A stretch of 31,708 nt of DNA from a virus, in IMG/VR virus record IMGVR_UViG_3300017613_000305; one strand, given 5' to 3'. This document shows positions 2,054 through 29,889 of the stretch, piece by piece. The notes beneath the pieces are model-generated. The model did not search any database, was not told where the DNA came from, and saw only the letters and a program-made list of their open reading frames with translations. The first letter of the stretch is position 1, and each line of letters opens with the position of its first letter. The position numbers were made by a program, and so were the translations under genes.

Positions 2054-2113
2054 AAGGGTATCCACCGCGTGGAGTAAGTAGACTCACTCACTAATAATCA
2101 AGCACTTACAAAA

Positions 2114-3304: not shown

Positions 3305-3336
3305 TTAACGACAAACGAACACCGTACTATACAAGT

Positions 3337-4758: not shown

Positions 4759-7486
4759 TAATACAACGGCATACATAAAGACTAGCAACGGCAACATCCA
4801 ACTAATTGAGGGTACAAGCTGTTCGTTGAATTTTGGTATAGCAGATATCCGTGATCTATCTAGTCGGGGTGGTACATTCTCGAAGCAATTGAATGCTGTG
4901 TGGAGTGATGAGAACCACAGGATACTTGGACAACTATTTGACATCAATGCAACAACGTTCGAATATAATTTCAATGAGCGTGTCGAATGTGAGGTGATAC
5001 AGAACGGTCTTGTGATAGTCTCGGATGCTTACTTGCAACTAATCGAGATAAACGAATCACAATCAACGAACGCACAACAAGCGAACGGTAGCTATTCAAT
5101 TCTTGTTAAGTCTGCACAACGCGACCTATTTGCCAAGATGGGATCAAAGGAATTAACGGACTTAGATTTCACATATCTCAATCACACCTATACAGCTGCA
5201 AACGTTGTTAGTTCATTTACGAACGACTACACCGATGGATATGTGTATCCGATGGGTATTAATGACACGGCAGACTTTTTGCTCACAGACTTTAGTCCAG
5301 CGATATATGTTAAACACTACTTCGACCAGATACATGCAACGAATGGATTTAGTTATGAAGTGCAAGATTGGGATGTGTTCGACAAACTCATTATACCATT
5401 CAACAATGATAAACCAGTAGTTGACAATACAGACTTTTTAGTTGAAGCGACGAAGAGTAGTTTTTCCAGTGGAGTGGGAGCGATAACAAACTGGACAGAG
5501 GTATCCGACAATGAAAGCCTATTCAATCCGACAACAGGAATATATGATGTACCTGTGTGCCTAACAGGTGGACAAGCGATAAATGCCAACATTGTAATTG
5601 ATTTCGACCTAGTACTAGATAATTCTTCTGGAGCAAATGCGTATCTAGTCGATATCCAAAACACTGCATATGATAGAAGTGTACGATACAAGGGATTCTT
5701 CCGAATACTAAAGAACGGAGTATTTTACATGGGTGGAAACTTTGTACCACCAACGAATGGAGGAACACAAGGACACGAATTCTTCGAAAGTGACACACCA
5801 GTATCAAATGGTGATACAATCATACTATCCGACAACAATACGATTAACGTACCAGCAGGAAACTTACTTCCAACGGATACGCTATCCTTTGAGATAATAG
5901 TCCAAGCACATGCAGGAAATGCACTCCCTGCGTTTATGAAGTGGAAGGATTCAGCACTATCAACTGCCAACGATGTAACGGTCACACCACGAATTGATAT
6001 AAACGATGTGACGATCAAATTAGAATTAACAGCCAATTCGATAGGGTACAACTCCGAACAGGATATGAACAACTATATACCGACGAAGATTAAACAAAAG
6101 AACTTCGTGAAATCGGTGTGTAACATGGCACAGTTAATGGCATATCCCGACCCCGACAATAGTAACAAAATAATATACCAACCTCGTGATGCATATTTAG
6201 ATGCAGGACAAGAAAAGGATTGGAGGGAAAAATTAATCAAGGACGAAAACCAATTGGTGCGGTTCTTACCGGAACTTGCTGCAAAGCGTAAAATCTTCAC
6301 GTACAAAGAAGATAAAGATGTGTACAACGTTTCCTATAAAGGAGCGACGAATGAGGTGTATGGTCAAGCTGAATTCATATTTGATACAGAGTTCAGACAA
6401 AACATTGAAACACTGGAGTTGGTTTTCTCACCTACACCAATGGCACAGATAGCAATCGGTGCGATAGTTCCAACATTCATTGGAGGTGCGCCAAATGTGA
6501 ACATTAGGATACTAATTCACAACGGTACGCAAGTATGTAATCAGTTCAATATATACGATTATGCATCAACAGGTTCGACAGGTGTCGTAGACTATCCGAT
6601 GGTAAGCCATTTCGATGATCATTACAATCCGACTGTTGACATCAATTTCGCTGTATGTGACTACTATTTCTATCAAGGCATAAACCTCACGAATAACAAC
6701 CTGTACAATTTACATTGGCGAAGAACAATGGCACAAATGAATAGTGGTAAGATGCTCACAGCCATGTTTGATTTGAGTGTTGCAGATATCGCCAATCTAA
6801 AGATGAACGATAAGGTGTACACAAAGAACGCTTGGTGGAACTTCAATAGGGTGATTGATTACAATGCTAATGGAAACCAAAACACGAAGGTTGAACTATT
6901 AAGCATCGACGACGAACTCGATCTACCTACAACCCGAAAAGCAGGACAACCAACTGACCTTCCTATTAGTACACCATCTGCACTTCCTTCTGGTTCGGAT
7001 AATCCAATCAAGGGATTACTAGAAGAACTATACACAGAAAACAACGTGAACCTATCCGATGGTGCTACAACGGTAAAAGGTACAGGTAATGTGATAGGGC
7101 AAAACGTTCGTGGATTCATCGTTGGTAACAACCAAATTATTGAAGAGTCGGGATATTGGATTAACGGTAAAAACATCGGTGATGGTTCGGACTTCTTCGA
7201 AGCGGTTGAATACTATTCTATCAATATTGATTCAGACTATACGGTTGACCCAACGGCACAAGCAGTGATTTATTTAACAGCAAGTGGCTTGACGATCACC
7301 TTACCAGACCCAGACGATTACACAGACACAAAGATATACATCAAGAACAAATCCACAGGATCAAACACAATAAGCGTTGAATTGGTTTCACCACCTGCAA
7401 CAATTGATGGAATGGCAACGGTGAAACTAAAGAAATTAGAATCATTAACACTTCATGCAAATGAAGGAATTTGGAGCATACTATGA
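4751..7486 (+). CDS. Large tail/baseplate or host-specificity protein
   Basis: 911 aa, the largest ORF in the genome, with N/T/S-rich beta-type composition. It lies between structural ORFs, with an ATGA overlap to the next gene. Confidence 0.5.
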   Translation: MANNTTAYIKTSNGNIQLIEGTSCSLNFGIADIRDLSSRGGTFSKQLNAVWSDENHRILGQLFDINATTFEYNFNERVECEVIQNGLVIVSDAYLQLIEINESQSTNAQQANGSYSILVKSAQRDLFAKMGSKELTDLDFTYLNHTYTAANVVSSFTNDYTDGYVYPMGINDTADFLLTDFSPAIYVKHYFDQIHATNGFSYEVQDWDVFDKLIIPFNNDKPVVDNTDFLVEATKSSFSSGVGAITNWTEVSDNESLFNPTTGIYDVPVCLTGGQAINANIVIDFDLVLDNSSGANAYLVDIQNTAYDRSVRYKGFFRILKNGVFYMGGNFVPPTNGGTQGHEFFESDTPVSNGDTIILSDNNTINVPAGNLLPTDTLSFEIIVQAHAGNALPAFMKWKDSALSTANDVTVTPRIDINDVTIKLELTANSIGYNSEQDMNNYIPTKIKQKNFVKSVCNMAQLMAYPDPDNSNKIIYQPRDAYLDAGQEKDWREKLIKDENQLVRFLPELAAKRKIFTYKEDKDVYNVSYKGATNEVYGQAEFIFDTEFRQNIETLELVFSPTPMAQIAIGAIVPTFIGGAPNVNIRILIHNGTQVCNQFNIYDYASTGSTGVVDYPMVSHFDDHYNPTVDINFAVCDYYFYQGINLTNNNLYNLHWRRTMAQMNSGKMLTAMFDLSVADIANLKMNDKVYTKNAWWNFNRVIDYNANGNQNTKVELLSIDDELDLPTTRKAGQPTDLPISTPSALPSGSDNPIKGLLEELYTENNVNLSDGATTVKGTGNVIGQNVRGFIVGNNQIIEESGYWINGKNIGDGSDFFEAVEYYSINIDSDYTVDPTAQAVIYLTASGLTITLPDPDDYTDTKIYIKNKSTGSNTISVELVSPPATIDGMATVKLKKLESLTLHANEGIWSIL

Positions 7487-8511
7487 CATACATATCAAAC
7501 AATAACTTCTTACTTGAAACTGCACGAAAAAACAATGCAGGTGTATCGCCGTATAATAAATTTGGATCAAATAGTGACATTGACACAGGAAGCGCACCAG
7601 AAGACATTTGTGGATACCCTGGGCTTTATACAGGCTTTGATGCAACGGCAGGTGAAGCAATAGGTGTAAGAAGCACAGGAGCAGGAAGTGGAAACGACAC
7701 AGGTTCACTAGTAACATCTGGAACATCAACAGGAGGAAGCGACACAACACTTGAAGATACAGGTACAAATTTTATTGTGGCTAGTGTTTCAGTTGGTGAT
7801 ATGATACTGAACGATACAGACCAATTCCACGGTGTAGTGACGGCAGTAACTAGTGCAACCGTTTTAACTGTTATCGCGTTTGATAATGGCGATGCAGAAA
7901 ATCCACCATCTTTTGAAACTGGCAAAACGTACAGGATCGTTCAACCATCTGGAAGTGGTGCATGTGTTGTAAAGGTAATAAAAGCCTTAGAAACTGATTA
8001 CGCAGAATACAAAAGTGAATATGTAATCATGAACGGTTCAACGGAAGTTGATACGGTTGGAACGGACTATATACGATGCTCACGTGCTAAGGTTGTTTTG
8101 TGGGGTAGTGGTGGAACAACGGATGGAACAATCGTTGGAAGACAAACCACAACCACGGCAAATGTATTTTGGGAAATCGAATCAGACCACGACCAAACAC
8201 TGGTTGCATGTGATACAATACCAGCAGGACACACGCTATACATAACAGGGATATCTGCAAAAATGGCAAGAGCAAACGGTTCGGCAGGTTCGGCAGAGGT
8301 GGATTTCAAAACCCGACAAGTAAACACCACAGGGTTCAACACTAAGATACACGAATACATAAGCCATGGTGCGCCCTTTGATCCTGCTATTGATTACATA
8401 TTAGCAGTCACACAATTCAGTGATTTCAAATGGTCGTGTAATGATGTAAGCGATAACAACACACAGATATCCGCACAGATTAACGGGTTTTTAGTAGCAA
8501 ATAATTCTTAA
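7483..8511 (+). CDS. Virion structural protein with a G/S/T-rich tract
   Basis: ATG 7483 overlaps the upstream TGA (ATGA); the track start 7471 is TTG. 342 aa, with the tract GAGSGNDTGSLVTSGTSTGGSDTT. Confidence 0.45.
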   Translation: MTYISNNNFLLETARKNNAGVSPYNKFGSNSDIDTGSAPEDICGYPGLYTGFDATAGEAIGVRSTGAGSGNDTGSLVTSGTSTGGSDTTLEDTGTNFIVASVSVGDMILNDTDQFHGVVTAVTSATVLTVIAFDNGDAENPPSFETGKTYRIVQPSGSGACVVKVIKALETDYAEYKSEYVIMNGSTEVDTVGTDYIRCSRAKVVLWGSGGTTDGTIVGRQTTTTANVFWEIESDHDQTLVACDTIPAGHTLYITGISAKMARANGSAGSAEVDFKTRQVNTTGFNTKIHEYISHGAPFDPAIDYILAVTQFSDFKWSCNDVSDNNTQISAQINGFLVANNS

Positions 8512-8551
8512 CAAATGGCGAACGTAGTAATAACAGCATTATTATAAACTC

Positions 8552-10939
8552 ATGGCAAGTAAAAAGAAAATAATCAACGTTGAGATCAAACCAGAATTAT
8601 CTGGGATAAGAAATCTAAACAACGAAATATCCAAGATGCGTTCAGAGTTGGACGAAGCGACAGATGCAAAGCATATTGACAAGCTCAACAAAGAACTCGG
8701 CAAGACCGAGAAGCAAGTTGTGGATATCAACGAAGCAGTTAAGAAGGTTGGTATCGGTAAGAAGTTCGAAGACGCATTTGATGACCTTGCACCACTATCT
8801 TCACGACTCGGTGAACTTGAAGATCAAATGTATGAATTAGCATTTGCAGGAAAAGCCGATAGTGAAGCCTTTCGTGAATTACAACAGGAGGCGGTGAAGA
8901 TGCGCCAAACCATTATCGAGACTGATAAGCAAGTGGACATCCTAGCAGACAACAAAGGCATGTCAGTCTTTAGTGATGGTATTGGACAAGTCGGTGCATC
9001 AATGGCACGTTTGGACTTTGAGACAGCAAGTAAACAAGCGACAAGTTTAGCAGGTGCAGCTGGAAAGATTTCTTTTGGTTCAGCAATGAAATCAATGAAG
9101 CAATTTGGTAGTACGATTATGCAACTAGGAAAAGCGATCTTAATGAATCCGTTGTTTTTACTTGCAGCCGTTATTGCAGCCGTTGGATATGCAGTATATA
9201 AACTGCTCGATGCGCTTGGTGTGATCAAGGTAATATTTGAAGCAGTAGGAAAAGCCATTGGATGGGTTGTGCAACAACTTAAAAACTTCTTGGATTGGTT
9301 GGGCTTAACGAACTATGCAGAACAAGACGCAGCGGAAAAGAGCGCGAAGTCTGCCGAACGTAGAGCGAAAGCATACGAGACAGCAAGTAAACGAATCACA
9401 CAAGCACTGGACACTGAAATCAAGTTAGCAGAACTTGCTGGTGAATCTACCGAAGCACTAGAAAAGAAGAAGCTGGAAGTTACAGAAGCGACAACAGAAA
9501 AACAGGTTGAAGCATTACGTGCAAGATTCAAAGCCGAAAAGATAAAGCAGGAAATGACACACGAGGAAATGGTCGAACTGCGCCAACAACTAGAGGAAAA
9601 GAAACTACTCCACAAGAAGAGTATCGACGATTTAAAGATATTCGGAGCAGAAGAAGCAGCCGAACGTCGTGATGCGATCATAAGAGACAAGAAAGCCAAA
9701 GCAGAACTAGCAGGTGATACGATTAAAGCACAGACGATCCAATTAAAAAAGGAGCGTGATCTAGCACTAAGAAATGAGAAGTTAACACAGAACGAGATTT
9801 TACTCATAAAGAAACAATTCAATGACGAGGTTGCAGAACTCGAAGAGGCAGACAGAGCAGAACGATATGCAAAGTGGAAAGCATGGAAGGACAACCGTGT
9901 GAGTACTGAACGTTTGATCCAAGACATTGAAACGGATTTATTGGAAGATGGTATCGACAAGGAACTCCAAGCGAACAATTACAAATTCGACAGGTTAATT
10001 GAAGACACCAAGCGTGATGAAACGATAAACCAAAAGGAGCGATTAAGATTAGTCGAACTATATGGTAAACAACGAACAGAAGCAGAAGCACAACTACGTG
10101 AGAAGAACCGACTAGCAGAAGCAGATGCGAAACTAAAGGAGAAAGAACAAGCACAAACCGACCTTGATAAATTGACAGCATGGTACGCTAAAAAGGACGC
10201 ACTGGAACGTTCGTTGATACAAGACCAATACGAAAAGGAAAAAGCAGAACGTACAGCACAATTCGAAGACCGTATAGCAACACTCGAAGCAGAAGGATTG
10301 CTAACCAATGCGATTGAGTTGAAAATAAAAAAGAAGTTGCAGAACGATCTGGACGCGATAGACAAGAAAGCGAACGACGAAAAGAAAGCAGCGGATGCGA
10401 AATCAATTGCAGACGCGAAATCATTAAGTGAAGCCAAGGCAAACATGGCAGTACAAGGATTGCAACTTGTTGCTAGTGTAGCAGAGTTATTTGCAGATAA
10501 GAGTGAAACGGCTGCGCGTGTTGCGTTCAATGTCCAAAAGGCTGCAAGTATAGCACAGGCAACAATGGATGGATATAAGGCTGTGATAAGTACATACGCG
10601 AATGCACCTGGTGGAGTTGTATTAAAGGGTATTCAAGCAGGTATAGCTGGAGCGTTCGCAGCTGTTCAGATTGCTAACATAGCCAAAACAAAATTCGAAG
10701 GTGGTGGAGCAGGTGCAAGTGGTGTTGCATCGGCAGGTTCATCTGCTGTTGGTGGTGGTGGCGCACAACAAGCACAAACACCAAACTTGGAATTGTTCGG
10801 ACAAGCGAATAACTTAAATACATTTTTCCAACCCGAAGGACAGGAACAAGGACAAACGGTACAGGCTGTTATATCATTAGATCAGTTAAGTACGTCACAG
10901 GACAAAGCGTCACAAATATTTGAAAGCGGTCTATTGTGA
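8552..10939 (+). CDS. Tape-measure-like protein (or internal/ejection protein)
   Basis: 795 aa. It has a hydrophobic segment (NPLFLLAAVIAAVGYAVYKLL), about 400 aa of K/E/A coiled coil, and a Gly-rich C-terminus (GGGAGASGVASAGSSAVGGGG). Confidence 0.6.
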   Translation: MASKKKIINVEIKPELSGIRNLNNEISKMRSELDEATDAKHIDKLNKELGKTEKQVVDINEAVKKVGIGKKFEDAFDDLAPLSSRLGELEDQMYELAFAGKADSEAFRELQQEAVKMRQTIIETDKQVDILADNKGMSVFSDGIGQVGASMARLDFETASKQATSLAGAAGKISFGSAMKSMKQFGSTIMQLGKAILMNPLFLLAAVIAAVGYAVYKLLDALGVIKVIFEAVGKAIGWVVQQLKNFLDWLGLTNYAEQDAAEKSAKSAERRAKAYETASKRITQALDTEIKLAELAGESTEALEKKKLEVTEATTEKQVEALRARFKAEKIKQEMTHEEMVELRQQLEEKKLLHKKSIDDLKIFGAEEAAERRDAIIRDKKAKAELAGDTIKAQTIQLKKERDLALRNEKLTQNEILLIKKQFNDEVAELEEADRAERYAKWKAWKDNRVSTERLIQDIETDLLEDGIDKELQANNYKFDRLIEDTKRDETINQKERLRLVELYGKQRTEAEAQLREKNRLAEADAKLKEKEQAQTDLDKLTAWYAKKDALERSLIQDQYEKEKAERTAQFEDRIATLEAEGLLTNAIELKIKKKLQNDLDAIDKKANDEKKAADAKSIADAKSLSEAKANMAVQGLQLVASVAELFADKSETAARVAFNVQKAASIAQATMDGYKAVISTYANAPGGVVLKGIQAGIAGAFAAVQIANIAKTKFEGGGAGASGVASAGSSAVGGGGAQQAQTPNLELFGQANNLNTFFQPEGQEQGQTVQAVISLDQLSTSQDKASQIFESGLL

Positions 10940-11271
10940 GTGCAAAACATTTATTCATATCACAATTAGGTGCTTGTACTAGAACGATCAACGCAGAGAT
11001 AAAGAAGCAAATTATAGAAGTTGGTGCGGTAGACACAGGACGAATGAAGAACAACACCAAGGTGAAAGTTGGCTATATCTTCAACCGCGATGTGTTTACC
11101 ATCCAATCTATAAACACCACAGATTATTATATCTTTGTTGATAAGGGTACGATTTATATCAAGGCTCGTGAGATCACCGACAAAACCCTTGACCGTAAAA
11201 GAGTACAGGACGCACTGGACAAAGTATACGACAAATGGATAGATTACATGATAGATAGACAATTCGACTAA
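10936..11271 (+). CDS. HK97 gp10-like virion component
   Basis: The GTG start overlaps the TMP stop. The motifs VDTGRMKNN and YYIFVDKGT resemble the gp10 family (DTG.L..S ... YA..VE.GT). Confidence 0.45.
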   Translation: MSAKHLFISQLGACTRTINAEIKKQIIEVGAVDTGRMKNNTKVKVGYIFNRDVFTIQSINTTDYYIFVDKGTIYIKAREITDKTLDRKRVQDALDKVYDKWIDYMIDRQFD

Positions 11272-11648
11272 TGGCATTTAAAACACCTTCCAGCATAGAT
11301 AGAGACTTCACCCGAAAGTTCAAAGCAGATATACGTAAAAAGGATTTGATTGACACATGGGCGTTGTATAAGTCGATAGATGTAACAGCAGAAATTGATT
11401 TGAATTTCGGTACGTTCATGAGTGCAAACTATACATTCAGCGTACAAGTATATGCAGAACCTTATTTGGTGTATTTGGACGAACGGTTCCAAGTAACCAA
11501 CGATTTCATTAATAGTCGATCATTTAGAAATACCACCGATAAGTTCCGTTTGTTTTTTACTGCATATTTGCAGAATGAATATCCTTTGCTTAGATTTGAT
11601 AATGTGACGCTTGAATTAAGCACGATCACATTAATGAATCAACCATGA
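11271..11648 (+). CDS. Hypothetical virion-associated protein
   Basis: 125 aa, coupled by TAATG to the upstream gene and ATGA to the downstream gene. Confidence 0.5.
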   Translation: MAFKTPSSIDRDFTRKFKADIRKKDLIDTWALYKSIDVTAEIDLNFGTFMSANYTFSVQVYAEPYLVYLDERFQVTNDFINSRSFRNTTDKFRLFFTAYLQNEYPLLRFDNVTLELSTITLMNQP

Positions 11649-11998
11649 AAATAATACTATTTATATTCCTTTCACTAGGAGCTACGGCACAAGAAACCAA
11701 GATACATGGCTTTCCAGAATTCGCAACGGTAACACGTTACATTGAACACAATGATACAAGTTATGTTCTAACATTCAAGGATCAACAATACAGCTTACTT
11801 GATATCCACGAAAGCGTAATCATTGACCCTACGCAAGTACTCAACAACTGTAACAAAGTACTTGAAACAGGTGAACCGATAAAGACATCCGAATACACCA
11901 TATACAAAGTCGGTAAGAAAGGGTTGTCTTTTTACGTTGGGAATAGTTACTTTTATCCAACACTTAGATTTTTTCAAAAGACATGCGACAAAAGGTAA
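11645..11998 (+). CDS. Secreted protein (signal peptide)
   Basis: The N-terminus MKIILFIFLSLGATAQE is a typical Sec signal with an A-x-A cleavage site. 117 aa. Confidence 0.6.
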   Translation: MKIILFIFLSLGATAQETKIHGFPEFATVTRYIEHNDTSYVLTFKDQQYSLLDIHESVIIDPTQVLNNCNKVLETGEPIKTSEYTIYKVGKKGLSFYVGNSYFYPTLRFFQKTCDKR

Positions 11999-12591
11999 GT
12001 ATCATAATACCCTATGACATTGATCGTGGATGGTTGAACGAAGCTATTGAATCAGTCAACGCACAAACATATCCAAACATTGAGTTGATTATCTCACAAT
12101 CAGACAAGGGTGTAAGCTACAATCTAAACGATGGTATCATGAAAGCCACAGGAACTTATGTCAAGTATCTATGTGAAGACGACAAACTCACACCGCGATC
12201 TATCGAACTATCGGTACAAGCAATGAAAGGAAACGACCTTATCCACGGTAATAGTTTAATACTAGGACACACTGGTAAATTAAGTTTGTTCGTACCACTC
12301 GACAAACACCCAACACTCACACAAATGATTCACAACAACCGAATACATGGTGGAACATTAATGTATCGCCGTGATGTGTTTGAACGTTTCGGATACTTTG
12401 ATGAATCATTGTGGACAGGTGAAGAGTATGATTTCAATATGATGCTACTATCCAAGGGTGCGAAGTTAGGATATTGCGGTGCAGCCTTATATGTTTACCG
12501 ACGACACGAACAACAAAAGAGTCTTGGACGTAAAGCCAACCAAACGAAAAGAAAACAAGCGATCAAGGAAATTAGACAACGATATGTATAA
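11983..12591 (+). CDS. Family 2 glycosyltransferase (GT-A)
   Basis: VSIIIPYDIDRGWLNEAIESVNAQTYPNIELII followed by NDGIMKATGTYVKYLCEDDKL shows the classic GT2 N-terminal and DxD signatures. Confidence 0.8.
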   Translation: MRQKVSIIIPYDIDRGWLNEAIESVNAQTYPNIELIISQSDKGVSYNLNDGIMKATGTYVKYLCEDDKLTPRSIELSVQAMKGNDLIHGNSLILGHTGKLSLFVPLDKHPTLTQMIHNNRIHGGTLMYRRDVFERFGYFDESLWTGEEYDFNMMLLSKGAKLGYCGAALYVYRRHEQQKSLGRKANQTKRKQAIKEIRQRYV

Positions 12592-13228
12592 ACACTTTAT
12601 ATTCTGCCGTTACAACTTAGAGCTATTCAATAGCAACCCATACAAGGTGTCTAATCCTGACCAATGGATGGTTGAGCGCATACCGATGTTTAGACGACTT
12701 CTAAGATCACTTAAATACCAAACGAACAAAGACTATACTTTCGTCGTGGGAATGGACAAGAATACACCGCGTGAGCATTTATACATGGTAGCGAAAACAC
12801 TGGAGGAATTCGATATCAATTATGTTGTTGTGTTTGGTGATCCACGTACACACATTGCAGAACAATCTGAATTCGTCGAGTGGATTATAACAAGTCGTAT
12901 TGACAACGATGATGAATATAGACCAGAGTTTGTTGAAGCGATACAAAGCAACTTCCAAGAAAAGACAGAACTGTTGGATGTGATCGGAGTGCAACACGAT
13001 GGTAAACGATTTTATACATCTGGACGACCAACACCAAACAGTCCATTTATTACATTGATTGAAAAGTGGGATAAACCCAAAACTGTATTGCATAGACCAC
13101 ACTCGATCATGAACGGTGAGTATCTTGCAAGGTACGCAAGTCTCGACCCTTTGACGATTCAACACATACACACATCGAACGCAGCGAATAGAATAATAGG
13201 CAAACCAATCAACCCGATATGGAAATAG
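12584..13228 (+). CDS. Glycosyltransferase, putative rhamnosyltransferase-like
   Basis: ATG 12584 overlaps the upstream stop by 8 nt; the track ORF starts earlier, inside the GT2 gene. The FIFCRYNL start and the TSRIDNDDEY motif resemble the Rhamno_transf family (T.RLD.DD). Confidence 0.55.
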   Translation: MYKHFIFCRYNLELFNSNPYKVSNPDQWMVERIPMFRRLLRSLKYQTNKDYTFVVGMDKNTPREHLYMVAKTLEEFDINYVVVFGDPRTHIAEQSEFVEWIITSRIDNDDEYRPEFVEAIQSNFQEKTELLDVIGVQHDGKRFYTSGRPTPNSPFITLIEKWDKPKTVLHRPHSIMNGEYLARYASLDPLTIQHIHTSNAANRIIGKPINPIWK

Positions 13229-13866
13229 TAGTAGCAATCGCAACAATGCCTGGTCGTGAGAAGTTCCTAGCAAAGACAATCAAATCACTGGCAGGACAAT
13301 GTGATCAACTACGGATATATGACAATGGTGTCCGTGATGTTGATTTAACCGACAATGGAAAGTTTTATTTTCTAAAGGAATACACCGAACCAGTTTATTA
13401 TCTGACTTGTGACGACGATATCATATACCCACCTAATTACGTGAAGGACATGGTGAAAGCCATAGACCGCACAGAGGGAATAGTAACACATCACGGTCGC
13501 ATACTCACAAGGAAAAACGTATCATACTATCGTGGAAGACACAAGACGTTCAGATGCAACGGATGGGTGAATAGAGAAAAACAAATCCACGTTGGTGGTT
13601 CTGGTGTAATGGGTTGGCGCACTGATCAATTTAATCCTGTTGAGATTTACGCAAGTGAAAACAAACGAATGTCTGATCTAGTCGTGGCACTTAAAGCTGC
13701 ACAAAGCGGTGTCAAGATTACCGTACTAGAACACCCTGTGAACTATGTGATAGTGCAACCTGTACCAAACGAACAAACCATATTTGGAGCAGATAGACAC
13801 GAGGATACTATTCAGTCACAGATTGCGAACGAGGTTTTACAGATTCTGACAAAGCGAACCAATTAA
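13219..13866 (+). CDS. Glycosyltransferase (GT-A-like, DDD motif)
   Basis: IVVAIATMPGREKFLAKTIKSLAGQ plus YYLTCDDDIIYPPNYV form a GT-A nucleotide-sugar binding pattern. Confidence 0.55.
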   Translation: MEIVVAIATMPGREKFLAKTIKSLAGQCDQLRIYDNGVRDVDLTDNGKFYFLKEYTEPVYYLTCDDDIIYPPNYVKDMVKAIDRTEGIVTHHGRILTRKNVSYYRGRHKTFRCNGWVNREKQIHVGGSGVMGWRTDQFNPVEIYASENKRMSDLVVALKAAQSGVKITVLEHPVNYVIVQPVPNEQTIFGADRHEDTIQSQIANEVLQILTKRTN

Positions 13867-14482
13867 AAACTAGGATGTGTGGCAATCCCATCACATGGCT
13901 ATATTTAGTGAGATCACCCTTTGTAATCACAAATATAGTACGCATCCATGCCGTTGCTGGATCAACCTTAACCACCTCTTCGTCTTCTTCATACTCTTCG
14001 TCTTCCTCACCTGAATCAAATAGATTAGGATATTTCTTGAATACGTCTGCACGATATTGGGTGTAATTCTCGACCGCACGATATACGTCTGTGATTTTCT
14101 TGTCGTATACATCTTCACCAAGACCGTACAACAATTGCGCGACCTTTGGCAATGCATCGACAAAACTATTGGACACTAGGATAACATCGAGATCAATAAA
14201 CAACGCAATGGATAGCTTGTTGAATGGCTTTAACCCTTCGTCCTTTAGTGTGCATGATATAGGTTTCGCAATAAACGAAATGCACTTCTTTACCTTCCTC
14301 AACTCACGGTCTGTGATATCTTCGTCCAAATCCAAGAACACATCACCGACTTCTAATATGAATTCTGTCGGTGTTATGTCCTTGTTGGAGATTAGTTCTT
14401 GCAACTCCATGAATTGTTCCACAGAGCAGTCTGACCAGTTAAGCGGTTTCTGTTCCATCTTTGGATTCGTCAGTGGATTCAT
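13808..14482 (-). CDS. Acidic hypothetical protein (second gene of the minus-strand cassette)
   Basis: Long minus-strand ORF with normal composition, whereas the plus-strand alternatives are Ser-rich junk. Candidate ATGs are at 14482 and 14458; the track start 14494 is TTG. It has an acidic run, SGEEDEEYEEDEE. Confidence 0.6.
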   Translation of the reverse strand: MNPLTNPKMEQKPLNWSDCSVEQFMELQELISNKDITPTEFILEVGDVFLDLDEDITDRELRKVKKCISFIAKPISCTLKDEGLKPFNKLSIALFIDLDVILVSNSFVDALPKVAQLLYGLGEDVYDKKITDVYRAVENYTQYRADVFKKYPNLFDSGEEDEEYEEDEEVVKVDPATAWMRTIFVITKGDLTKYSHVMGLPHILVFNWFALSESVKPRSQSVTE

Positions 14483-15014
14483 TAAGCTCTGCAAGTTGTC
14501 TACGCATCACACGAACCATGAATGGTGCAGCTACATCAGACTTCAATTGCTTTCTGAATAGTTCTGCTTTGTGCTTGATATGATTCCAATCACGGTGTTC
14601 GGTGTTTGTTAAATCCACATCTTTGAATAAGATAGCAACCACCCAACTAGGGAAATGTCCATCATACTTTAATTGTGCCTGTTCGATTAACGATATATCC
14701 CTCGCTTTGAATTCGAATTCCACACCCTCGAATGATTTGTAAGTCCTACCGTTCACAACAATTTCATCTGGAACGTCCTTTGGTAGTTCGTAGTCATTAA
14801 ACGAACGCACCGTGTCAAGGAATTCTTTTTGGTTTAAACTATCCAGTACATCGTTGGGTACTTTCAACATTTCGAAAACTTCGAAATACTTACTTACTAC
14901 ATCGTTGCCTTGTCTGTTTACTATCGAAAAAATAGTATCGAACTCATTCAACGTCAATTCATCGGGGGCGTTTCTAAGTTCGTAAACTTTGTCACCATAA
15001 TTAATTTCTAACAT
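14439..15014 (-). CDS. Acidic hypothetical protein (first gene of the minus-strand cassette; TAC-like N-terminus)
   Basis: Start MLEINYGDKVYELRN at ATG 15014, downstream of a minus-strand TAnnTTTG box. The longer track ORF (to 15143) would begin upstream of that promoter and overlap gene 15061. Confidence 0.6.
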   Translation of the reverse strand: MLEINYGDKVYELRNAPDELTLNEFDTIFSIVNRQGNDVVSKYFEVFEMLKVPNDVLDSLNQKEFLDTVRSFNDYELPKDVPDEIVVNGRTYKSFEGVEFEFKARDISLIEQAQLKYDGHFPSWVVAILFKDVDLTNTEHRDWNHIKHKAELFRKQLKSDVAAPFMVRVMRRQLAELNESTDESKDGTETA

Positions 15015-15041
15015 ATACAATTCTTTTACAACAAAAATACA

Positions 15042-15049
15042 CAAATTTA
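15042..15049 (-). promoter_or_regulatory. Bacteroidetes-type -7 box TAAATTTG on the minus strand
   Basis: Plus strand reads CAAATTTA at 15042-15049, 27 nt upstream of the minus-strand ATG 15014. Confidence 0.5.
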
Positions 15050-15060
15050 CTATACGGATA

Positions 15061-16146
15061 ATGTTACCAGAATACACATTATCTATCGACCCATCATTAG
15101 CCGAAAACGGTGAAGAGTTGGGTATCTTTGAAATAGCGAACACCGCGACCCCTGCAATTATGTTGAAGGGTGTTGCATTCTCTAGTCAAGAAACGAAAGC
15201 GATCTACTTTGCAGATAACAAAAAATACAGGATTGCAGCTCCAGTTGTAACGCCTGGTAAGATATACCGCAAAGACCCCGAAACAGAAGAAGAATACTAC
15301 GCGAAAGTGACACCCGAATATATCGAAAGTGTATATGTTGACTTCATGGCAAAACGAATAGGTGGTGAAGTATTCAACGAGGAACACAACGAAAAGGTTA
15401 AACCACCATCATACATATTGGAAACATGGTTAGTGGAAAACCCAAAGACCGACAAAGCACAAACAGTTTATGGTCTTGATGTTCCAAAGGGTACATGGTT
15501 CGCGGTTCAACAATTCACGGATAAAGAAGTTTATAATGATTACGTCGAACGTGGTCTCACAGGTTTTTCAATACATGGACATTCAGCAATGTTGTTGATG
15601 TCCGAACAAAACAAAACAGAAATGGAAAAGGAAGAAAACAAAGAAGTTGAAGCAATGGAAACAATGCAAGACGGTGCGAAGTTCATGATAGGCGATAAGT
15701 ACTATGAAGTGAAAGACGGCGTACCAGTTGAAGTTGTTGAGGTTGTCGAAGAAACTGAAATGGCAGAAGACGACAAAACCGAAGAAACGGAAATGAACGA
15801 AGAAGAGTCTAAGACAGATGAAACTGAAATGATGGACGAATCAGAGGAAAAGGAAACAGAGTTAGCAGAAGAGGAAACAAAGGAAACGGAAATGGCTGAC
15901 GAAGAGGGAACAGAAGAGACTGAAATGGCAGACGATGCAACTGGTGAGTACTACTCGAAGGAAGAGGTGGACGCTAAGTTCAGCGAAGTGTTTGACATGT
16001 TAGCAGACTTGAAAAAAGAAGAAGAAACAACAGAGGAAGTTGAAGATGTACCAAGTGTACAGATGTCAAAACAGCCAAAGAGTAGAGTGCAAAACATGCG
16101 CGAAAAACTGGATAAATTCGGAACGTTTAGCCCGAACAACAAATAA
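15061..16146 (+). CDS. XkdF-like prohead protease fused to an acidic scaffold-like domain
   Basis: The N-terminal roughly 185 aa (VTPEYIESVYVDFMAKR..NEEHN...ETWLVE...GTWFAVQQFTDKEVYNDYVERGLTGFSIHG) fits the XkdF/S78_2 pattern. The C-terminus is E/T/M-rich with ETEM repeats. It lies directly upstream of the MCP. Confidence 0.65.
   Translation: MLPEYTLSIDPSLAENGEELGIFEIANTATPAIMLKGVAFSSQETKAIYFADNKKYRIAAPVVTPGKIYRKDPETEEEYYAKVTPEYIESVYVDFMAKRIGGEVFNEEHNEKVKPPSYILETWLVENPKTDKAQTVYGLDVPKGTWFAVQQFTDKEVYNDYVERGLTGFSIHGHSAMLLMSEQNKTEMEKEENKEVEAMETMQDGAKFMIGDKYYEVKDGVPVEVVEVVEETEMAEDDKTEETEMNEEESKTDETEMMDESEEKETELAEEETKETEMADEEGTEETEMADDATGEYYSKEEVDAKFSEVFDMLADLKKEEETTEEVEDVPSVQMSKQPKSRVQNMREKLDKFGTFSPNNK
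15751..15927 (+). repeat. Tandem in-frame repeats of about 33 nt (core GAAAC[TG]GAAATG, encoding ETEM)
   Basis: Cores at 15751, 15784, 15820, 15853 (an ETEL variant), 15883 and 15916, spaced 30-36 nt apart. Confidence 0.85.
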
Positions 16147-16172
16147 AATAACAACAATAAAACAAAGCAAAA

Positions 16173-17150
16173 ATGGCAACAAGAGAATTAAGAATGTCAA
16201 TGAATGTAGCTACGGATGCGCTTTTAGAAGTGAATCCAAAAGAGTTCTACACACAAGCGTTGTTAGAAAACCGTTCATCGGCTTACTTTCGACAAGTATT
16301 AAACATTAAAGAAAAAACAAAGATCGGTTCTTTGTCTTTCGGTACATTGCTTTTTCCAGCAGACTGTGCTTACCAAGGAGGTGATAGCACACTAGGAGCA
16401 AAGGAAATGGAACCATGTAAAATCCAAATCGGTACGGACTTATGTATGTACGAAATGGAAACTTCTTTCTTAGCGGATTGGATGAACGCAGGATCAAACG
16501 GTGATTGGATGCCAGCGGAGTATGCAACATTCATGTTTGGTGAGTTATCGCGTGAAGTGTCTGACCTTTTAGAGGTTCTAACATGGCAAGGTGATACTGA
16601 TGTAACATTTGACGAAGAAGACCCAGCTACGTTCATCGGATTATGTGATGGATTAGAGAAGCAACTATGTGGTGCAAACATACCAGCAGCTCAAAGGGTG
16701 TCAGGAACATCGATAACTTCAACGAATGTTATTGCAGAAATGACAAAAGTATACAACGCTATCCCAACGAAGGTGAAACAAAACAAGGCAGATGTATCTT
16801 GGTTCGTATCACAAAACGTTGCAGATGCGTACGTGTTAGCAGTTGCGTTGCAATCGGCAGAGGTGTACACTAGAGACAATCCAGAATTAACTTTCTTAGG
16901 ATACAAGTTGATGGTTGGTGCAGGAATGTCTGACAATGTGATGACACTTTCGAAAGCAAACAACTATGTATTCCTTGCGGATTTAGTTAGCGACCCAGAA
17001 GATTTGAATGTGATTGATTTGTCTAAAACGACAGGCGACAAAACAATCCGTGTTCGTTCTGACTTCAAAGTTGGATTTAACTACTTGAATGATACAGATG
17101 GACCAGGTGATAACGAATGGGTTACTTACGGATTATCTTGCGCATCATAA
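16173..17150 (+). CDS. Major capsid protein (HK97-fold type)
   Basis: 325 aa immediately after the protease/scaffold gene and followed by a strong terminator. Size and position are typical. Confidence 0.75.
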   Translation: MATRELRMSMNVATDALLEVNPKEFYTQALLENRSSAYFRQVLNIKEKTKIGSLSFGTLLFPADCAYQGGDSTLGAKEMEPCKIQIGTDLCMYEMETSFLADWMNAGSNGDWMPAEYATFMFGELSREVSDLLEVLTWQGDTDVTFDEEDPATFIGLCDGLEKQLCGANIPAAQRVSGTSITSTNVIAEMTKVYNAIPTKVKQNKADVSWFVSQNVADAYVLAVALQSAEVYTRDNPELTFLGYKLMVGAGMSDNVMTLSKANNYVFLADLVSDPEDLNVIDLSKTTGDKTIRVRSDFKVGFNYLNDTDGPGDNEWVTYGLSCAS

Positions 17151-17164
17151 GCATTGAGAACATC

Positions 17165-17194
17165 GGGGTGGGTTTTGGACTCACCCCTTATTAT
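17165..17194 (+). terminator. Rho-independent terminator after the MCP
   Basis: 9-bp stem GGGGTGGGT(17165-17173)/ACTCACCCC(17179-17187) including one G-T wobble, a 5-nt loop, then TTATTAT. Confidence 0.6.
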
Positions 17195-17215
17195 AAATAA
17201 TTAAAAACACACACA

Positions 17216-17740
17216 ATGGCAGATCAAAATTGTACAGCATTGGAAGAGGTTGTAATCGGATGTCCTAGGAATTCGGGTGGTATCTCTGATATCATAGTTG
17301 GTGATATGGAGGATGTTGCTAGTGTTGTTGCAGATGATGCGACATGGGCGTTAACAACGTTCACTGTTGACGTTGCACCGATCACTATCAATGTTAAGCG
17401 CAGACATTCAGACTATACAGAAGAGGAAACGAACGACTTTGCAAACGGTTCGGTAAAGGTAGCGAGAACAGTTAACGCGAAACTACCAAGACGTGAAGCA
17501 GCGAAATCAAGATCACTCAAAATCATGGGTGATGGACAAAGATACTTATACACACTTGCGAAAGACTTGAATGGTATTTGGTGGTATTTCCCTTATTCAC
17601 AACTTCAAACAGTTGGTGGTGGTTCTGGTAGAGAACGAGAAGATGGATCGAGTTATGACGTAGTAATGTACGGTGAAGATTCACAACTTGCATACGAGAT
17701 ACCAACAGCACTTGTTGAAGCAGCGTTGGCAGTATCATAA
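17216..17740 (+). CDS. Abundant virion protein (major tail tube or head decoration candidate)
   Basis: 174 aa, a single gene bracketed by two intrinsic terminators next to the MCP. Confidence 0.4.
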   Translation: MADQNCTALEEVVIGCPRNSGGISDIIVGDMEDVASVVADDATWALTTFTVDVAPITINVKRRHSDYTEEETNDFANGSVKVARTVNAKLPRREAAKSRSLKIMGDGQRYLYTLAKDLNGIWWYFPYSQLQTVGGGSGREREDGSSYDVVMYGEDSQLAYEIPTALVEAALAVS

Positions 17741-17765
17741 ACTAACAACAATCTAACATAAATCA

Positions 17766-17792
17766 GGGTGACTTAACGGTCGCCCTTTTTTT
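17766..17792 (+). terminator. Rho-independent terminator
   Basis: GGGTGAC(17766-17772)/GTCGCCC(17779-17785) with one T-G wobble, then T7 (17786-17792). Confidence 0.75.
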
Positions 17793-17814
17793 GTTTTGAA
17801 ACGTGACTAAATCC

Positions 17815-18159
17815 ATGCACTATACTAGTATGATTAAGGTCGAAAAAGATATAGCCACAGATGTTGCAGTAACGTTTGCAGAATTGACAACAATATCACC
17901 TGTGTACTACTTGATACAAGTAATGAATTACATGGACGAGGTTGTGCAATCAATAACACCCACAGAAACGTCTGGTTCAATAGAAAGGTATAACTTATTC
18001 GAAATCACTTCAACACTACCAGCAGGTGAATACGCATACGAAGCATATCAATCTAGTACGATTAACCCTACCATCAATGATGTCGTTGGTGATCCTGTTG
18101 AATACGGTCTATTTATAGTAACAACAACGGAAGACGTTGAAGATAACATATATACATGA
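17815..18159 (+). CDS. Hypothetical protein
   Basis: First ATG of track ORF 17803 (which starts at GTG). ATGA overlap with the portal gene. Confidence 0.5.
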   Translation: MHYTSMIKVEKDIATDVAVTFAELTTISPVYYLIQVMNYMDEVVQSITPTETSGSIERYNLFEITSTLPAGEYAYEAYQSSTINPTINDVVGDPVEYGLFIVTTTEDVEDNIYT

Positions 18160-19517: not shown

Positions 19518-20026
19518 TGGCAACAGTTTATTTTGTAACAGAAAACTATATTAAACAGACGACAGCGTTAACAAAGAACGTTGACGCGAACGAGATAATG
19601 CCGTTTATTTCCACAGCTGCACAGACATGGATGCAGTCGATACTGGGTACATACTTCTTCGATGCTTTAGTTGTGAAGTTTAATGACCAAACATTAAGCG
19701 CAGACGAAGAGGTGTTGGTAGCGAAGATTCAACCTGCCGTTGCGTGGAGGGCTGCATCTGATTGTGTATTGGAACTTACTTACCAACTAAAGAATAAAGG
19801 ACTACAAAAACAAAGTGGTGACAATTCAGAAGCGGTTGAGCTTAGTGAAATGGGATTCGTCAAAACACATTATGAAAACAAAGCAGAATTCTTCGAATCG
19901 TTCGTGGTGGAATACTTGAAACTCAATAACGACTTGTTCGCAGAGTTCACAGATACGTTGAACAAGTCTGGAGTGATTAAACCACAAGACGACGACAATT
20001 TTAACAGTGATATTCTATTCGTATGA
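19517..20026 (+). CDS. Head-tail connector/adaptor (gp6-like)
   Basis: 169 aa. The N-terminus VTENYIKQTT...NEIMPFISTAAQTWMQSILG resembles gp6-like adaptor N-termini. It follows the portal gene. Confidence 0.4.
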   Translation: MATVYFVTENYIKQTTALTKNVDANEIMPFISTAAQTWMQSILGTYFFDALVVKFNDQTLSADEEVLVAKIQPAVAWRAASDCVLELTYQLKNKGLQKQSGDNSEAVELSEMGFVKTHYENKAEFFESFVVEYLKLNNDLFAEFTDTLNKSGVIKPQDDDNFNSDILFV

Positions 20027-23401: not shown

Positions 23402-23428
23402 AATGCCCTATAAATAATATTATAATAA

Positions 23429-23436
23429 TATATTTG
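23429..23436 (+). promoter_or_regulatory. Early promoter -7 box TATATTTG
   Basis: Exact TAnnTTTG in an AT-rich context shared with 29890-29897 (AATAATATATTTGTATAT). Confidence 0.55.
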
Positions 23437-23455
23437 TATATGCCATTATTATGAT

Positions 23456-29872: not shown

Positions 29873-29889
29873 ACATTGTAATACAATAA

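Follow-up and report, generated by a model that had tools for sequence, protein, structure and literature searches.

Few kinds of unexplained phage cargo gene are as common as glycosyltransferases, whose documented targets fall into three classes: host surface glycans, virion proteins, and DNA. Cytoplasmic glycosyltransferases can modify lipid A-core or Und-PP-linked units, with export by the host's MsbA or Wzx. The chlorovirus hyaluronan and chitin synthases are membrane-integrated, processive GT2 enzymes; they extrude the polymer, and genes for precursor synthesis often come with them. Chloroviruses also glycosylate virion proteins. In 2023, Freeman et al. reportedly described virion glycosylation in actinobacteriophages (Che8, Corndog, and Myrna). 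In two reports, actinobacteriophage sets of glycosyltransferases and methyltransferases are read as virion glycosylation (PMC13313380, PMC12363180). Terminase-adjacent phage GT-A and GT-B enzymes place mono- to trisaccharides on 5hmC (bioRxiv 10.1101/2023.12.21.572611). Glycosyltransferase-containing neighborhoods of 5mYOX (TET/JBP) genes carry PF00535 and CAZy GT45 annotations, and terminases co-occur in 19% of these neighborhoods (bioRxiv 10.1101/2025.08.14.668559).

We analyzed a 31,708-nucleotide stretch of viral DNA (IMG/VR record IMGVR_UViG_3300017613_000305, hereafter the window) in which three glycosyltransferase genes follow the tail genes. With a probability of about 0.8, we regard this cassette as a glycan-building module that combines a GT2-family with a GT45-type enzyme. 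The KfiA/PmHS-type GT45 enzyme is an added family: tblastn found no match to it among 50,697 GenBank phage records, yet 348 related stretches in IMG/VR show that it is common in viromes. If the cassette remodels LOS or capsule or decorates the virion, it would be a tractable and clearly optional module, and near-isogenic natural relatives without it would permit a direct test of the value of the cargo to an apparently virulent phage.

Layout and genomic setting of the cassette

The first and last 121 nt of the window (1-121 and 31588-31708) are identical, and because of these terminal repeats we regard the window as a complete genome of ~31,587 bp (~31.6 kb). Four co-directional ORFs had been predicted at 11645-13866, and all four are found there on the plus strand. 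The first (11645-11998), recognized from the ORF list and by reading the sequence, encodes a 117-aa secreted protein with a signal peptide (sp117). It is followed by a soluble, 202-aa GT-A glycosyltransferase of the GT2 family (11983-12591; PF00535), here called GT2; a 214-aa GT-A enzyme of the PF11316 "putative rhamnosyltransferase" family (12584-13228); and a 215-aa GT-A enzyme (13219-13866), here called GT3, which profile and fold comparisons place with KfiA and PmHS2 (CAZy GT45-type). Neighboring ORFs share 4 to 16 nt (ATGA at 11645, 11983/11998, 12584/12591, and 13219/13228), and the cassette is translationally coupled to the upstream tail genes through overlapping stop and start codons.

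The setting between tail and head modules, as given in the original prediction, also stands. The upstream tail genes (8552-11648, plus strand) encode a tape-measure-like protein (8552-10939; phrog_9483), a tail-completion-like protein (10936-11271; phrog_5), and a 125-aa ORF. Downstream, the head module starts (15061-17150, plus strand) with an S78_2 prohead protease (15061-16146; PF14550, E=2.5e-9) and a capsid-like protein (16173-17150; phrog_1623/11320), and the portal gene lies at 18156-19517. Two acidic ORFs (228 and 234 aa) on the minus strand (13808-15143), convergent with the cassette, stand between it and the head genes; they had no family match in Pfam, PHROG, and NCBIfam searches. 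The original prediction left this pair out.

A motif scan returned a tentative, Bacteroidota-type promoter-like candidate (TTTG-N20-TAGATTTG) at 11567-11598 on the plus strand, with the first cargo gene ~47 nt downstream. The motif has four matches in the window versus 1.6 expected, which overall is not significant; the sole other plus-strand match (23433-23463) falls in AT-rich intergenic DNA of an early region. Tentatively, the cassette may have its own promoter.

Pfam searches with all sizeable ORFs of the complete genome found no integrase, flippase, thymidylate-synthase-like protein, Tet_JBP, or DNA methylase, and the earlier claim that integrase, Gtr-type flippase, and base-hypermodification genes are absent holds genome-wide. 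Neither a lysogeny module nor Gtr-type membrane components nor export and priming genes are present in the complete genome, which does contain one small Cro/C1-type HTH ORF. The genome appears virulent. The phage most likely infects a member of the Bacteroidota: the closest TerL sequences are from Elizabethkingia and Flavobacterium phages, the closest match in the genome collection, a 9.7-kb contig, had been assigned to a Bacteroidetes MAG, and the cellular homologs of the PF11316 enzyme, which come from Bacteroidota, support the same assignment.

The cassette closes the tail-gene operon as optional, horizontally mobile cargo. About 60 relatives without the glycosyltransferases share the gene order TerS-TerL-w473-w911-TMP-<r228-<r234-protease-MCP. 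The minus-strand ORF pair is kept in these syntenic relatives, as well as in loci L001 and L003, and marks the slot into which the cassette is inserted. In most of 85 related loci, the cassette separates TerL from the structural genes or the tail module from the head module, and in many relatives it lies directly downstream of TerL. It is found after TerL in L004, L034, and L036, before TerS in L065 and L077, and amid the small early-type ORFs of a 63-kb phage (L165/166); on a 412-kb contig (L164), the cassette GT2 occurs within a region that resembles a prophage. Relatives have added tailoring genes for a GT-B enzyme, a SAM methyltransferase, and a hexapeptide acyltransferase. Whether homologous phages keep the cluster in one position had been raised as a check: most syntenic relatives have no cassette, and elsewhere it sits in other modules.

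The cassette enzymes

The original prediction had described the last enzyme as a third GT-A glycosyltransferase. The GT-A fold is retained, but the generic label is not, since the GT3 family profile (A1), compared to PDB, matched PmHS2 residues 301-526 with E=9e-35 (profile positions 3-202 of 213), and the PmHS2 GlcNAc-T domain is the nearest fold, with a TMq of 0.87 (1e-16). The profile also matched KfiA (E=4e-21), and GT3 alone had only below-threshold matches in Pfam (PF00535, PF13506). In the Foldseek search with the AF2 model of GT3 (pLDDT 96), ranks 1-9 were all PmHS2 or KfiA (E 1e-16 to 1e-14); EXTL2 and EXT1/2 at 1e-6 and TarP-like proteins at 1e-5 followed. Foldseek also gave weaker matches to glycosyltransferases of giant viruses. 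GT3 has the motifs DNGKF, CDDDIIYP, HG, GTG, and M-x-D in common with PmHS2. In 35 phage homologs, K48/F49, DDD65-67, HGR92-94, M151/D153, and H172 are invariant, and N46/G47 of DNGKF nearly so. Profile and model place GT3 among the KfiA/PmHS2-like (CAZy GT45-type) enzymes, and it is predicted to be a retaining alpha-HexNAc transferase; the activity typical of that family is retaining alpha-1,4 transfer of GlcNAc from UDP-GlcNAc onto an acceptor that ends in GlcA. Cellular GT45-like domains usually occur within multidomain, polymerase-like proteins of 400-900 aa.

GT2 matches PF00535 with E=5e-8 and 33.4 bits (cut-off 23.3), and its family has the invariant residues R15, D66-D67, and E147-E148; this gathering-score match and the acidic motifs confirm the predicted family. 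The best PDB match of the GT2 profile (A2) is the A2 domain of the chondroitin polymerase K4CP (1e-11), which we take to be its GlcA-transferase domain. Other, generic GT2s follow at ~1e-9 and the PmHS2 N-domain at 7e-7. By these scores, GT2 appears to favor GlcA-transferase domains over generic GT2s by a small margin, with no specific alliance.

GT2 and GT3 homologs are adjacent or fused in 45 of the 85 related viral loci, as separate neighboring genes in 24 and as a fusion of ~410 aa in 21. The order in the fusions, with GT2 N-terminal and GT45 C-terminal, is that of the bifunctional heparosan synthases (PmHS1/2); a fused homolog of 412 aa is present in BFVD (A0A6J5MS10). In the window, the two are separate genes with the PF11316 gene between them. 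This pairing or fusion of GT3 with GT2 indicates a capsule-polymerase-like module. The pair is, however, not obligatory, because 36 of the 85 loci have a GT45-like gene without a neighboring GT2 of the same family. Other divergent GT-like ORFs adjoin the GT45-like gene in loci without this GT2. All three glycosyltransferases of the cassette have negative GRAVY values and no hydrophobic segments, as expected of soluble proteins.

For the PF11316 enzyme, the match to Rhamno_transf (E=3e-10, 40.4 bits; cut-off 23) and the GT-A fold of the AF2 model (pLDDT 92) agree with the predicted "rhamnosyltransferase-like" enzyme, where the family name is itself putative and does not imply the donor sugar. 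Foldseek returned generic GT2 neighbors only (TM ~0.55), Listeria RmlT among them. In the DNDD motif, D107, D109, and D110 are invariant and N108 is nearly invariant. Being present in 9 of the 85 loci, this enzyme is an optional third transferase. Cellular homologs (~30% identical) occur in Winogradskyella, Algibacter, and Cnuella, and one of them, from Winogradskyella, sits in a GT9+GT2+GT4 cluster.

The N-terminus of sp117 (MKIILFIFLSLGATA|QE) reads, by eye and without a predictor, as a typical SPase-I signal peptide. The protein has no Pfam or NCBIfam match, and 1.84 billion representatives contained four small homologs (114-125 aa) and two weak repeat matches in giant proteins. As sp117 is absent from L001 and every other relative compared, it is lineage-specific cargo that was co-inserted and is not conserved with the glycosyltransferases, and the four proteins do not form a conserved unit.

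Candidate acceptors and alternative readings

For the acceptor, we favor a lipid-linked precursor of a host envelope glycan, at somewhat less than even odds; lipid A-core/LOS, an Und-PP-linked unit, or a capsule-like chain would be the candidates. The enzymes would act in the cytoplasm on host UDP-sugars. GT3 would add an alpha-linked HexNAc, most likely GlcNAc, and GT2 an alternating beta-linked sugar, for which GlcA is a possibility by comparison with heparosan and chondroitin polymerases. The PF11316 enzyme would add one further residue. The product would be a short, possibly repeating, Hex(A)-HexNAc glycan that is assembled on the cytoplasmic face and exported via host machinery. The surface of the infected cell would thereby be remodeled, which could mask receptors, exclude superinfecting phages, or reduce the loss of progeny on debris. 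The nearest characterized or cellular relatives (KfiA/PmHS2, K4CP, and the Winogradskyella GT9/GT2/GT4 cluster) are all envelope-glycan enzymes, and a cassette that functions after its moves between modules and phages suggests an acceptor supplied by the host, not a particular virion protein. The tailoring genes gained by relatives and the lack of a cassette-linked feature in the compared head proteins point the same way, and the co-inserted sp117 and the possible promoter are traits of cargo. Envelope remodeling and virion glycosylation were the two options left by the original prediction, and both still lead; the accompanying "no flippase" argument is weak, however, because host MsbA or Wzx could export modified units. 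Since the genome has no lysogeny module, any surface benefit must come during lytic or carrier-state infection.

Coupling to the late tail genes and, in most relatives, neighboring terminase or structural genes suit a target in virion or DNA more than remodeling of the surface early in infection. The glycosyltransferases could be synthesized alongside the structural proteins and attach sugars to capsid or tail proteins in the cytoplasm, either ahead of assembly or while it proceeds; the glycan would change the surface properties of the particle, such as stability, stickiness, or recognition. We rate virion glycosylation second in likelihood, somewhat below the envelope reading. Coupling to the tail genes and the position of the cassette between TerL and structural genes or between tail and head modules in most of the 85 loci are in its favor, as are soluble enzymes in a genome without membrane, export, or lysogeny genes, the methyltransferase and extra glycosyltransferases of relatives, and the weaker matches to giant-virus enzymes. 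The head proteins compared, however, do not separate relatives with and without the cassette: in MCP, w174, w169, and protease, no C-terminal extension, systematic difference in length, or other consistent feature tracks it, and the one difference is a 6-residue insertion in the MCP of the window and L001. The S/T/G-rich tract that had been proposed as acceptor does exist (48% S/T over 25 residues), but nothing links it to glycosylation. It belongs to a variable distal-tail protein (7471-8511), and the closest relative, L001, has a different protein in this slot. No protein glycosylation is known for GT45/KfiA-type or PF11316 enzymes, and the movement of the cassette between unrelated phage backbones is harder to reconcile with a specific virion acceptor.

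That the split or fused GT2+GT45 pair of these uncultured phages, probably of Bacteroidota, makes a GAG-like Hex(A)-GlcNAc chain during infection, be it free, on the cell surface, or on the virion, we consider improbable. If true, it would be a phage counterpart of chlorovirus hyaluronan synthesis and would provide new compact GAG-backbone polymerases (~200 + 215 aa, or ~410 aa fused); should a GlcNAc-containing chain be polymerized, phages would be seen to make glycosaminoglycan-like material, and these would be very small enzymes for chemoenzymatic heparosan-type synthesis. Slightly more doubtful is the proposal that the pair is a split heparosan-like copolymerase and that infected cells thereby make a glycosaminoglycan-like polysaccharide, free or bound to a primer, which leaves them at lysis or through host export systems, in analogy to chlorovirus hyaluronan. 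It draws on the PmHS1/2-like domain composition and order with fusions in 21 loci, the strong similarity of GT3 to the PmHS2 GlcNAc-T domain, K4CP A2 as the top PDB match of the GT2 profile, and the mostly multidomain, polymerase-like context of cellular GT45 domains. Yet GT2 is barely nearer to GlcA-transferase domains than to generic GT2s, and many relatives have the GT45-like gene without this GT2. Genes for kps-type priming and export and for UDP-GlcA dehydrogenase were not found by Pfam in the complete genome, and such genes are also missing from the listed families of neighbors in the 85 related loci. The third glycosyltransferase and the tailoring enzymes speak for an oligosaccharide of mixed composition more than for a simple copolymer.

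Lower still we place the glycosylation of a hydroxylated base (5hmC, 5hmU, or 5hoC) in phage DNA shortly before packaging, as protection from restriction and CRISPR. The published terminase-adjacent and 5mYOX/GT45 neighborhoods are precedents, many relatives have the cassette directly after TerL, and GT2 and GT3 are mildly basic (pI 9.2 and 8.3). The original argument against DNA glycosylation nevertheless stands. At Pfam sensitivity, the complete genome has no thymidylate-synthase homolog, Tet_JBP/2OG oxygenase, or C5-methyltransferase, and the HxD iron-binding motif is absent from unassigned ORFs of suitable size; without a recognizable hydroxylated-base enzyme, the known routes to DNA sugar hypermodification are disfavored. 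Neither Tet_JBP nor thymidylate synthase is among the families listed by Pfam for the neighbor-gene clusters of the 85 loci. The closest fold neighbors of GT3 are polysaccharide GlcNAc transferases (1e-16), with TarP-like proteins reaching only 1e-5. Moreover, 65% of glycosyltransferase contigs have no 5mYOX or ThyS, and the authors of that preprint judge a DNA role less likely for these contigs (bioRxiv 10.1101/2023.12.21.572611).

Gtr-type lysogenic O-antigen conversion, already not an obvious explanation in the original prediction, is disfavored, as the complete genome has no integrase or lysogeny module, GtrA, GtrB, or membrane glycosyltransferase.

Comparison with known systems

The DNA-hypermodification clusters (Pyle et al. 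2023, O'Toole et al. 2025, Lee et al. 2026) resemble this locus in having small GT-A enzymes beside the terminase, sometimes methyltransferases, and modular second and third glycosyltransferases on uncultured phage contigs. They combine a 5mYOX/TET or ThyA homolog with GT-A/GT-B enzymes, whereas no hydroxylated-base enzyme is found here, and the structural neighbors here are capsule GlcNAc transferases, not JGT or TarP.

The actinobacteriophage cassettes (Che8, Corndog, and Myrna) are likewise accessory glycosyltransferase sets found in only some related phages. They too include methyltransferases, which here occur in relatives, and capsid or tail proteins are their possible targets. The glycosyltransferase families and the host phylum differ from those reported there, and in the present case no glycosylated virion protein or acceptor extension is evident in the head proteins compared.

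The prophage GtrABC systems and TarP of S. aureus prophages are phage-borne glycosyltransferase cargo through which the surface glycans of the host and its susceptibility to phages change, and TarP is a weak structural neighbor of GT3 (1e-5). In contrast to these prophages, the present genome has no integrase, GtrA, GtrB, or membrane GT-C, and the cassette is part of a late operon. The chlorovirus synthases offer a parallel as virus-encoded, glycosaminoglycan-type enzymes that use host UDP-sugars during lytic infection, as the phage pair would. Here, however, the GT2 and GT45 enzymes are soluble and no precursor genes accompany them.

Compared to PmHS2 of Pasteurella multocida and KfiA of E. 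coli K5, the enzymes in the window are separate (202 + 215 aa), about 23% identical to PmHS2, and phage-encoded, without kps-type export or priming genes, and the GT2 half is not specifically PmHS-like (7e-7 versus 1e-11 for K4CP). GT3, in contrast, is homologous to KfiA and PmHS2 along its whole length, and the fused GT2-GT3 proteins of relatives follow the domain order of PmHS, while GT2 otherwise is an adjacent partner.

The four-gene block and its phage

The original prediction had placed a secreted protein and three glycosyltransferases between the tail and head modules, and all four ORFs were confirmed on the + strand. The placement was borne out by the tape-measure-like and tail-completion-like proteins encoded upstream, and by the S78_2 prohead protease, capsid-like protein, and portal encoded downstream, beyond two reverse-strand ORFs. 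From the tape-measure gene to the last glycosyltransferase, each gene shares 4 to 16 nt with the next, which argues for translational coupling between the block and the tail operon. The first gene (11645-11998) encodes a 117-aa protein, sp117, with a textbook SPase-I N-terminus, MKIILFIFLSLGATA|QE, as read from the sequence. The GT2 assignment of the second gene (11983-12591; PF00535, E = 5e-8) and the rhamnosyltransferase-like assignment of the third (12584-13228; PF11316 'Rhamno_transf', E = 3e-10) both held above the curated Pfam thresholds. The last gene (13219-13866, hereafter GT3) had GT2 and GT21 matches in Pfam, all sub-threshold. PHROGs and NCBIfam returned either nothing or generic 'glycosyltransferase' labels for the region. 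A Bacteroidota-type promoter motif 5' of the sp117 gene (11567-11598) is suggestive, not significant, and scans for sigma-70-type promoters and terminators were at or below chance.

The two reverse-strand ORFs, r228 (13808-14494) and r234 (14439-15143), encode acidic proteins (pI 4.6 and 4.8, respectively) with no family match in Pfam, PHROGs, or NCBIfam. They are kept at the tail-head junction in about 60 syntenic relatives, with the glycosyltransferase cassette present or absent.

Bases 1-121 are identical to bases 31588-31708. This exact repeat at both contig ends indicates that the phage genome is complete at about 31,587 bp and was either assembled as a circle or is terminally redundant. 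As predicted, Pfam scans of all sizeable ORFs revealed no integrase or flippase. They also gave no DNA methyltransferase, no Tet_JBP/2OG oxygenase, and no homologue of thymidylate synthase, and no unassigned ORF of sufficient length carries the HxD motif with which 2OG dioxygenases bind iron. The genome also encodes one small Cro/C1-type HTH ORF, a DnaB helicase, NinG, and a PAPS-reductase-like protein (30128-31027, 299 aa; phrog_424, E = 4.5e-32) whose likeness to DndC is very weak. Genes of the latter kind are common yet unexplained in phages, and this one has no visible connection to the glycosyltransferases.

The module order (1628-21615) is unusual: TerS, TerL, tail-like proteins of 473 and 911 aa, tape measure, protease, capsid, and then portal. 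The gene for a 530-aa protein with an Lcl_C domain comes after the portal block in this genome, whereas relatives have it after the tape measure. Tandem-like acidic 'E-T-E-M' repeats (15748-15935), spaced 33-63 nt apart, lie in the C-terminal part of the protease/scaffold-like protein. A 40-nt AT-rich element occurs twice (23409-23448 and 29870-29909, 78% identical); the first copy overlaps an intergenic Bacteroidota-type promoter motif (23433-23463), and the elements are possibly early promoters.

Against GenBank phages, blastn with the region gave no match, the phage having no nucleotide-level relative there. Similarly, tblastn gave none for GT3, the PF11316 enzyme, or the capsid protein, and at most 26% identity for the GT2; no cultured relative is thus available to supply annotation. 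A Bacteroidota host is suggested on four grounds: the closest relatives of the large terminase are in phages of Elizabethkingia (41.6%) and Flavobacterium (35%); the PF11316 enzyme has its nearest cellular homologues in Winogradskyella, Algibacter, and Cnuella; the closest match to GT3 in genome collections is a contig of 9.7 kb that belongs to a Bacteroidetes MAG bin; and the sp117 signal peptide is of a type common in Bacteroidota.

Relationships of the encoded proteins

A profile was built for GT3 from 35 aligned homologues, out of 177 found in metagenomes, nearly all on contigs of 50 kb or less. Searched against the PDB, it matched the C-terminal GlcNAc-transferase domain of Pasteurella multocida heparosan synthase 2, PmHS2 (residues 301-526, E = 9e-35), and KfiA of E. 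coli K5 (E = 4e-21), and nothing else at E ≤ 1. GT3 and PmHS2 have the motifs DNGKF, CDDDIIYP, HG, GTG, and M-x-D in common, and no key residue varies within the phage family. The nine best PDB neighbors of the AlphaFold2 model (pLDDT 96) are all PmHS2 or KfiA structures (E 1e-16 to 1e-14, TM up to 0.87), followed by the eukaryotic heparan-sulfate GlcNAc transferases EXTL2 and EXT1/2; matches to TarP, SpsA, and the STIV A197 glycosyltransferase are weaker by ten orders of magnitude. Together, profile matches, common motifs, and model neighbors identify GT3 as a KfiA/PmHS-type (CAZy GT45-like), predicted retaining GT-A transferase. The GT-A label of the original prediction holds, but the enzyme is more specific than a generic GT-A. 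In bacterial genomes, the GT45-like domain is at most 37% identical and mostly lies inside multidomain proteins of 400-900 aa.

The best match of the GT2 profile was the A2 domain of the chondroitin polymerase K4CP (1e-11), followed by other GT2s (about 1e-9) and the N-terminal domain of PmHS2 (7e-7); in NCBIfam, it had only a far-sub-threshold likeness to PglI and TuaG. On these profile matches, we treat it as a generic, presumably inverting GT2 with a mild lean towards glycosaminoglycan-polymerase domains. The PF11316 enzyme has a GT-A fold in its AlphaFold2 model (pLDDT 92). Its profile had no match among PDB sequences, and its structural neighbors are generic (Leptospira GT, TarS, Listeria RmlT, and SpsA; TM about 0.55), so that no donor sugar can be assigned. 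The Winogradskyella homologue is clustered with a GT9 heptosyltransferase-family gene, three GT2s, and two GT4s, in what looks like an LPS-core or LOS locus.

Effectively, sp117 is an orphan. It had no family match in Pfam or NCBIfam and was found in 0 of the 85 related loci examined, and a search of 1.84 billion protein representatives yielded only four small homologues (114-125 aa). Two giant LRR/Ig surface-type proteins gave weak, repeat-based matches, which were set aside as uninformative.

Distribution and arrangement of the cassette

About 70 relatives were gathered by a search with the lineage-specific 473-aa structural protein (w473). Their common synteny is TerS-TerL-w473-w911-TMP-w530-r228-r234-protease-MCP, with r228 and r234 reversed. 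Almost all had none of the three glycosyltransferases within the roughly 20 kb examined, and in these the tail genes and r228 are separated only by an ORF of about 156 aa and one of about 257 aa. The cassette as a lineage core gene was accordingly rejected. It occupies the slot between the tail genes and r228 in three groups only: the window, L001/L168, and a few others (L003, L028, L058, L061, and L066). The check proposed with the original prediction, whether homologous phages keep the cluster in place, came out positive for these loci and negative elsewhere: the cassette lies directly after TerL in L004, L034, and L036, before TerS in L065 and L077, and among small early-type ORFs in a 63-kb phage (L165/166), and the cassette GT2 is found in a prophage-like part of contig L164 (412 kb). 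Its absence from most relatives and its varied positions argue that the cassette is accessory, mobile cargo. Both GC and GC3 of the cassette agree with those of the genome, with no compositional signs of recent transfer, which argues that the acquisition was not recent.

L001/L168 is the closest relative (glycosyltransferases 53-69% identical to those of the window), with a gene set of GT2, a 137-aa insert, PF11316 enzyme, and GT3. The insert (L001:9595-10008) is an unrelated ORF between the GT2 and PF11316 genes, and sp117 is absent; the cassette itself attracts small insertions. The capsid-like proteins (16173-17150 in the window) of the two phages with all three glycosyltransferases, the window and L001, carry a six-residue DGPG(D/E)N insertion near the C-terminus (residues ~305-315); neither the cassette-less relatives nor L003, which has GT2 and GT3 only, have this insertion.

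GT3 relatives are encoded in 348 IMG/VR stretches. We surveyed domains in 85 loci, comprising 80 of these stretches plus L001 and L004-L007 from earlier searches. GT2 and GT3 were fused into one protein of about 410 aa (N-terminal GT2, C-terminal GT45) in 21 of the 85 loci and were separate genes at most 1.5 kb apart in 24; in four, the GT3 domain was part of a longer ORF with another N-terminal domain. BFVD contains one such GT2-GT45 fusion, from an uncultured Caudovirales phage. A GT2 of the window's family was not seen in 36 loci, where adjoining ORFs of about 200 aa include at least one weak GT-like protein; hhalign comparisons of neighbor clusters from these loci with the three glycosyltransferase profiles were mostly negative, and one cluster was contaminated by overlapping ORFs. 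The PF11316 gene occurred in only 9 of the 85 loci.

The fusion is usually preceded by a GT-B and a SAM methyltransferase, which makes for a larger cassette of glycan-building and tailoring functions directly 3' of the terminase; a hexapeptide acyltransferase occurs in other loci. Examples are a 302-aa GT-B-like protein (Glyco_trans_1_2; L073:7966-8871) and a 176-aa SAM methyltransferase (L071:5090-5617), with about 20 similar loci. The gene immediately 3' of the GT45-like gene encodes, in one group of relatives, an ECF-type sigma-70 factor (TIGR02937; L062:10615-11049) that resembles the Bacteroidetes subfamily.

Candidate acceptors and comparison with known synthases

We tentatively favor a host envelope glycan precursor as the acceptor, at a probability of roughly 40%. 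The characterized or cellular relatives all act on envelope polysaccharides, and the plug-and-play behavior of the cargo is consistent with a host-supplied acceptor. The secreted protein alongside the cassette, possibly with a promoter of its own (not significant), points the same way. In LPS assembly, lipid A-core or Und-PP-linked units can be modified in the cytoplasm without a phage flippase, so the absence of one fits an envelope acceptor as well. The missing lysogeny module and the late-operon position argue against it.

Glycosylation of virion proteins appears somewhat unlikely. It would suit the coupling of the cassette to structural genes and has a reported precedent in actinobacteriophages (PMC12363180, PMC13313380). 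However, the capsid-like protein, the neighboring head proteins w174 and w169, and the protease show no C-terminal extension or other consistent feature that tracks cassette presence, and the portability of the cassette between unrelated backbones sits uneasily with an acceptor specific to the virion. The S/T/G-rich tract put forward as an acceptor candidate belongs to a variable distal-tail protein, which counts against it. The original interpretation is supported in part: its virion and envelope options are the two leading candidates. Synthesis of a free heparosan-like polymer, which overlaps with an envelope acceptor, seems quite improbable.

To our knowledge, every DNA-glycosylation route needs an enzyme that creates a hydroxylated base, and DNA is a very unlikely acceptor in a complete genome that has none. 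Among the matches listed (top 25 Pfam families of neighbor-cluster representatives), no TET/JBP or thymidylate-synthase genes appeared near the 85 loci. Phage GT-A and GT-B enzymes beside terminases do glycosylate 5hmC (bioRxiv 10.1101/2023.12.21.572611), annotations in GT-containing TET/JBP neighborhoods include CAZy GT45 (bioRxiv 10.1101/2025.08.14.668559), and 5-hydroxycytosine arabinosylation requires a ThyA homologue (PMC13326640).

A phage glycosaminoglycan-like copolymerase would, if true, be of high interest; we consider it unlikely. Glycosyltransferase cargo as such is well known in phages. What is new is the recognition in phages of the KfiA/PmHS-type family, of which tblastn with GT3 found no member in 50,697 GenBank phage records, and its carriage as optional cargo by a complete genome that lacks both an integrase and a base-hydroxylating enzyme. 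Also new is the frequent fusion to a GT2 in the domain order of heparosan synthases. Capsule polymerases embed the GT45-like domain in multidomain proteins, as most of the bacterial homologues do, and the domain order of PmHS1/2 is the same as that of the phage GT2-GT45 fusions.
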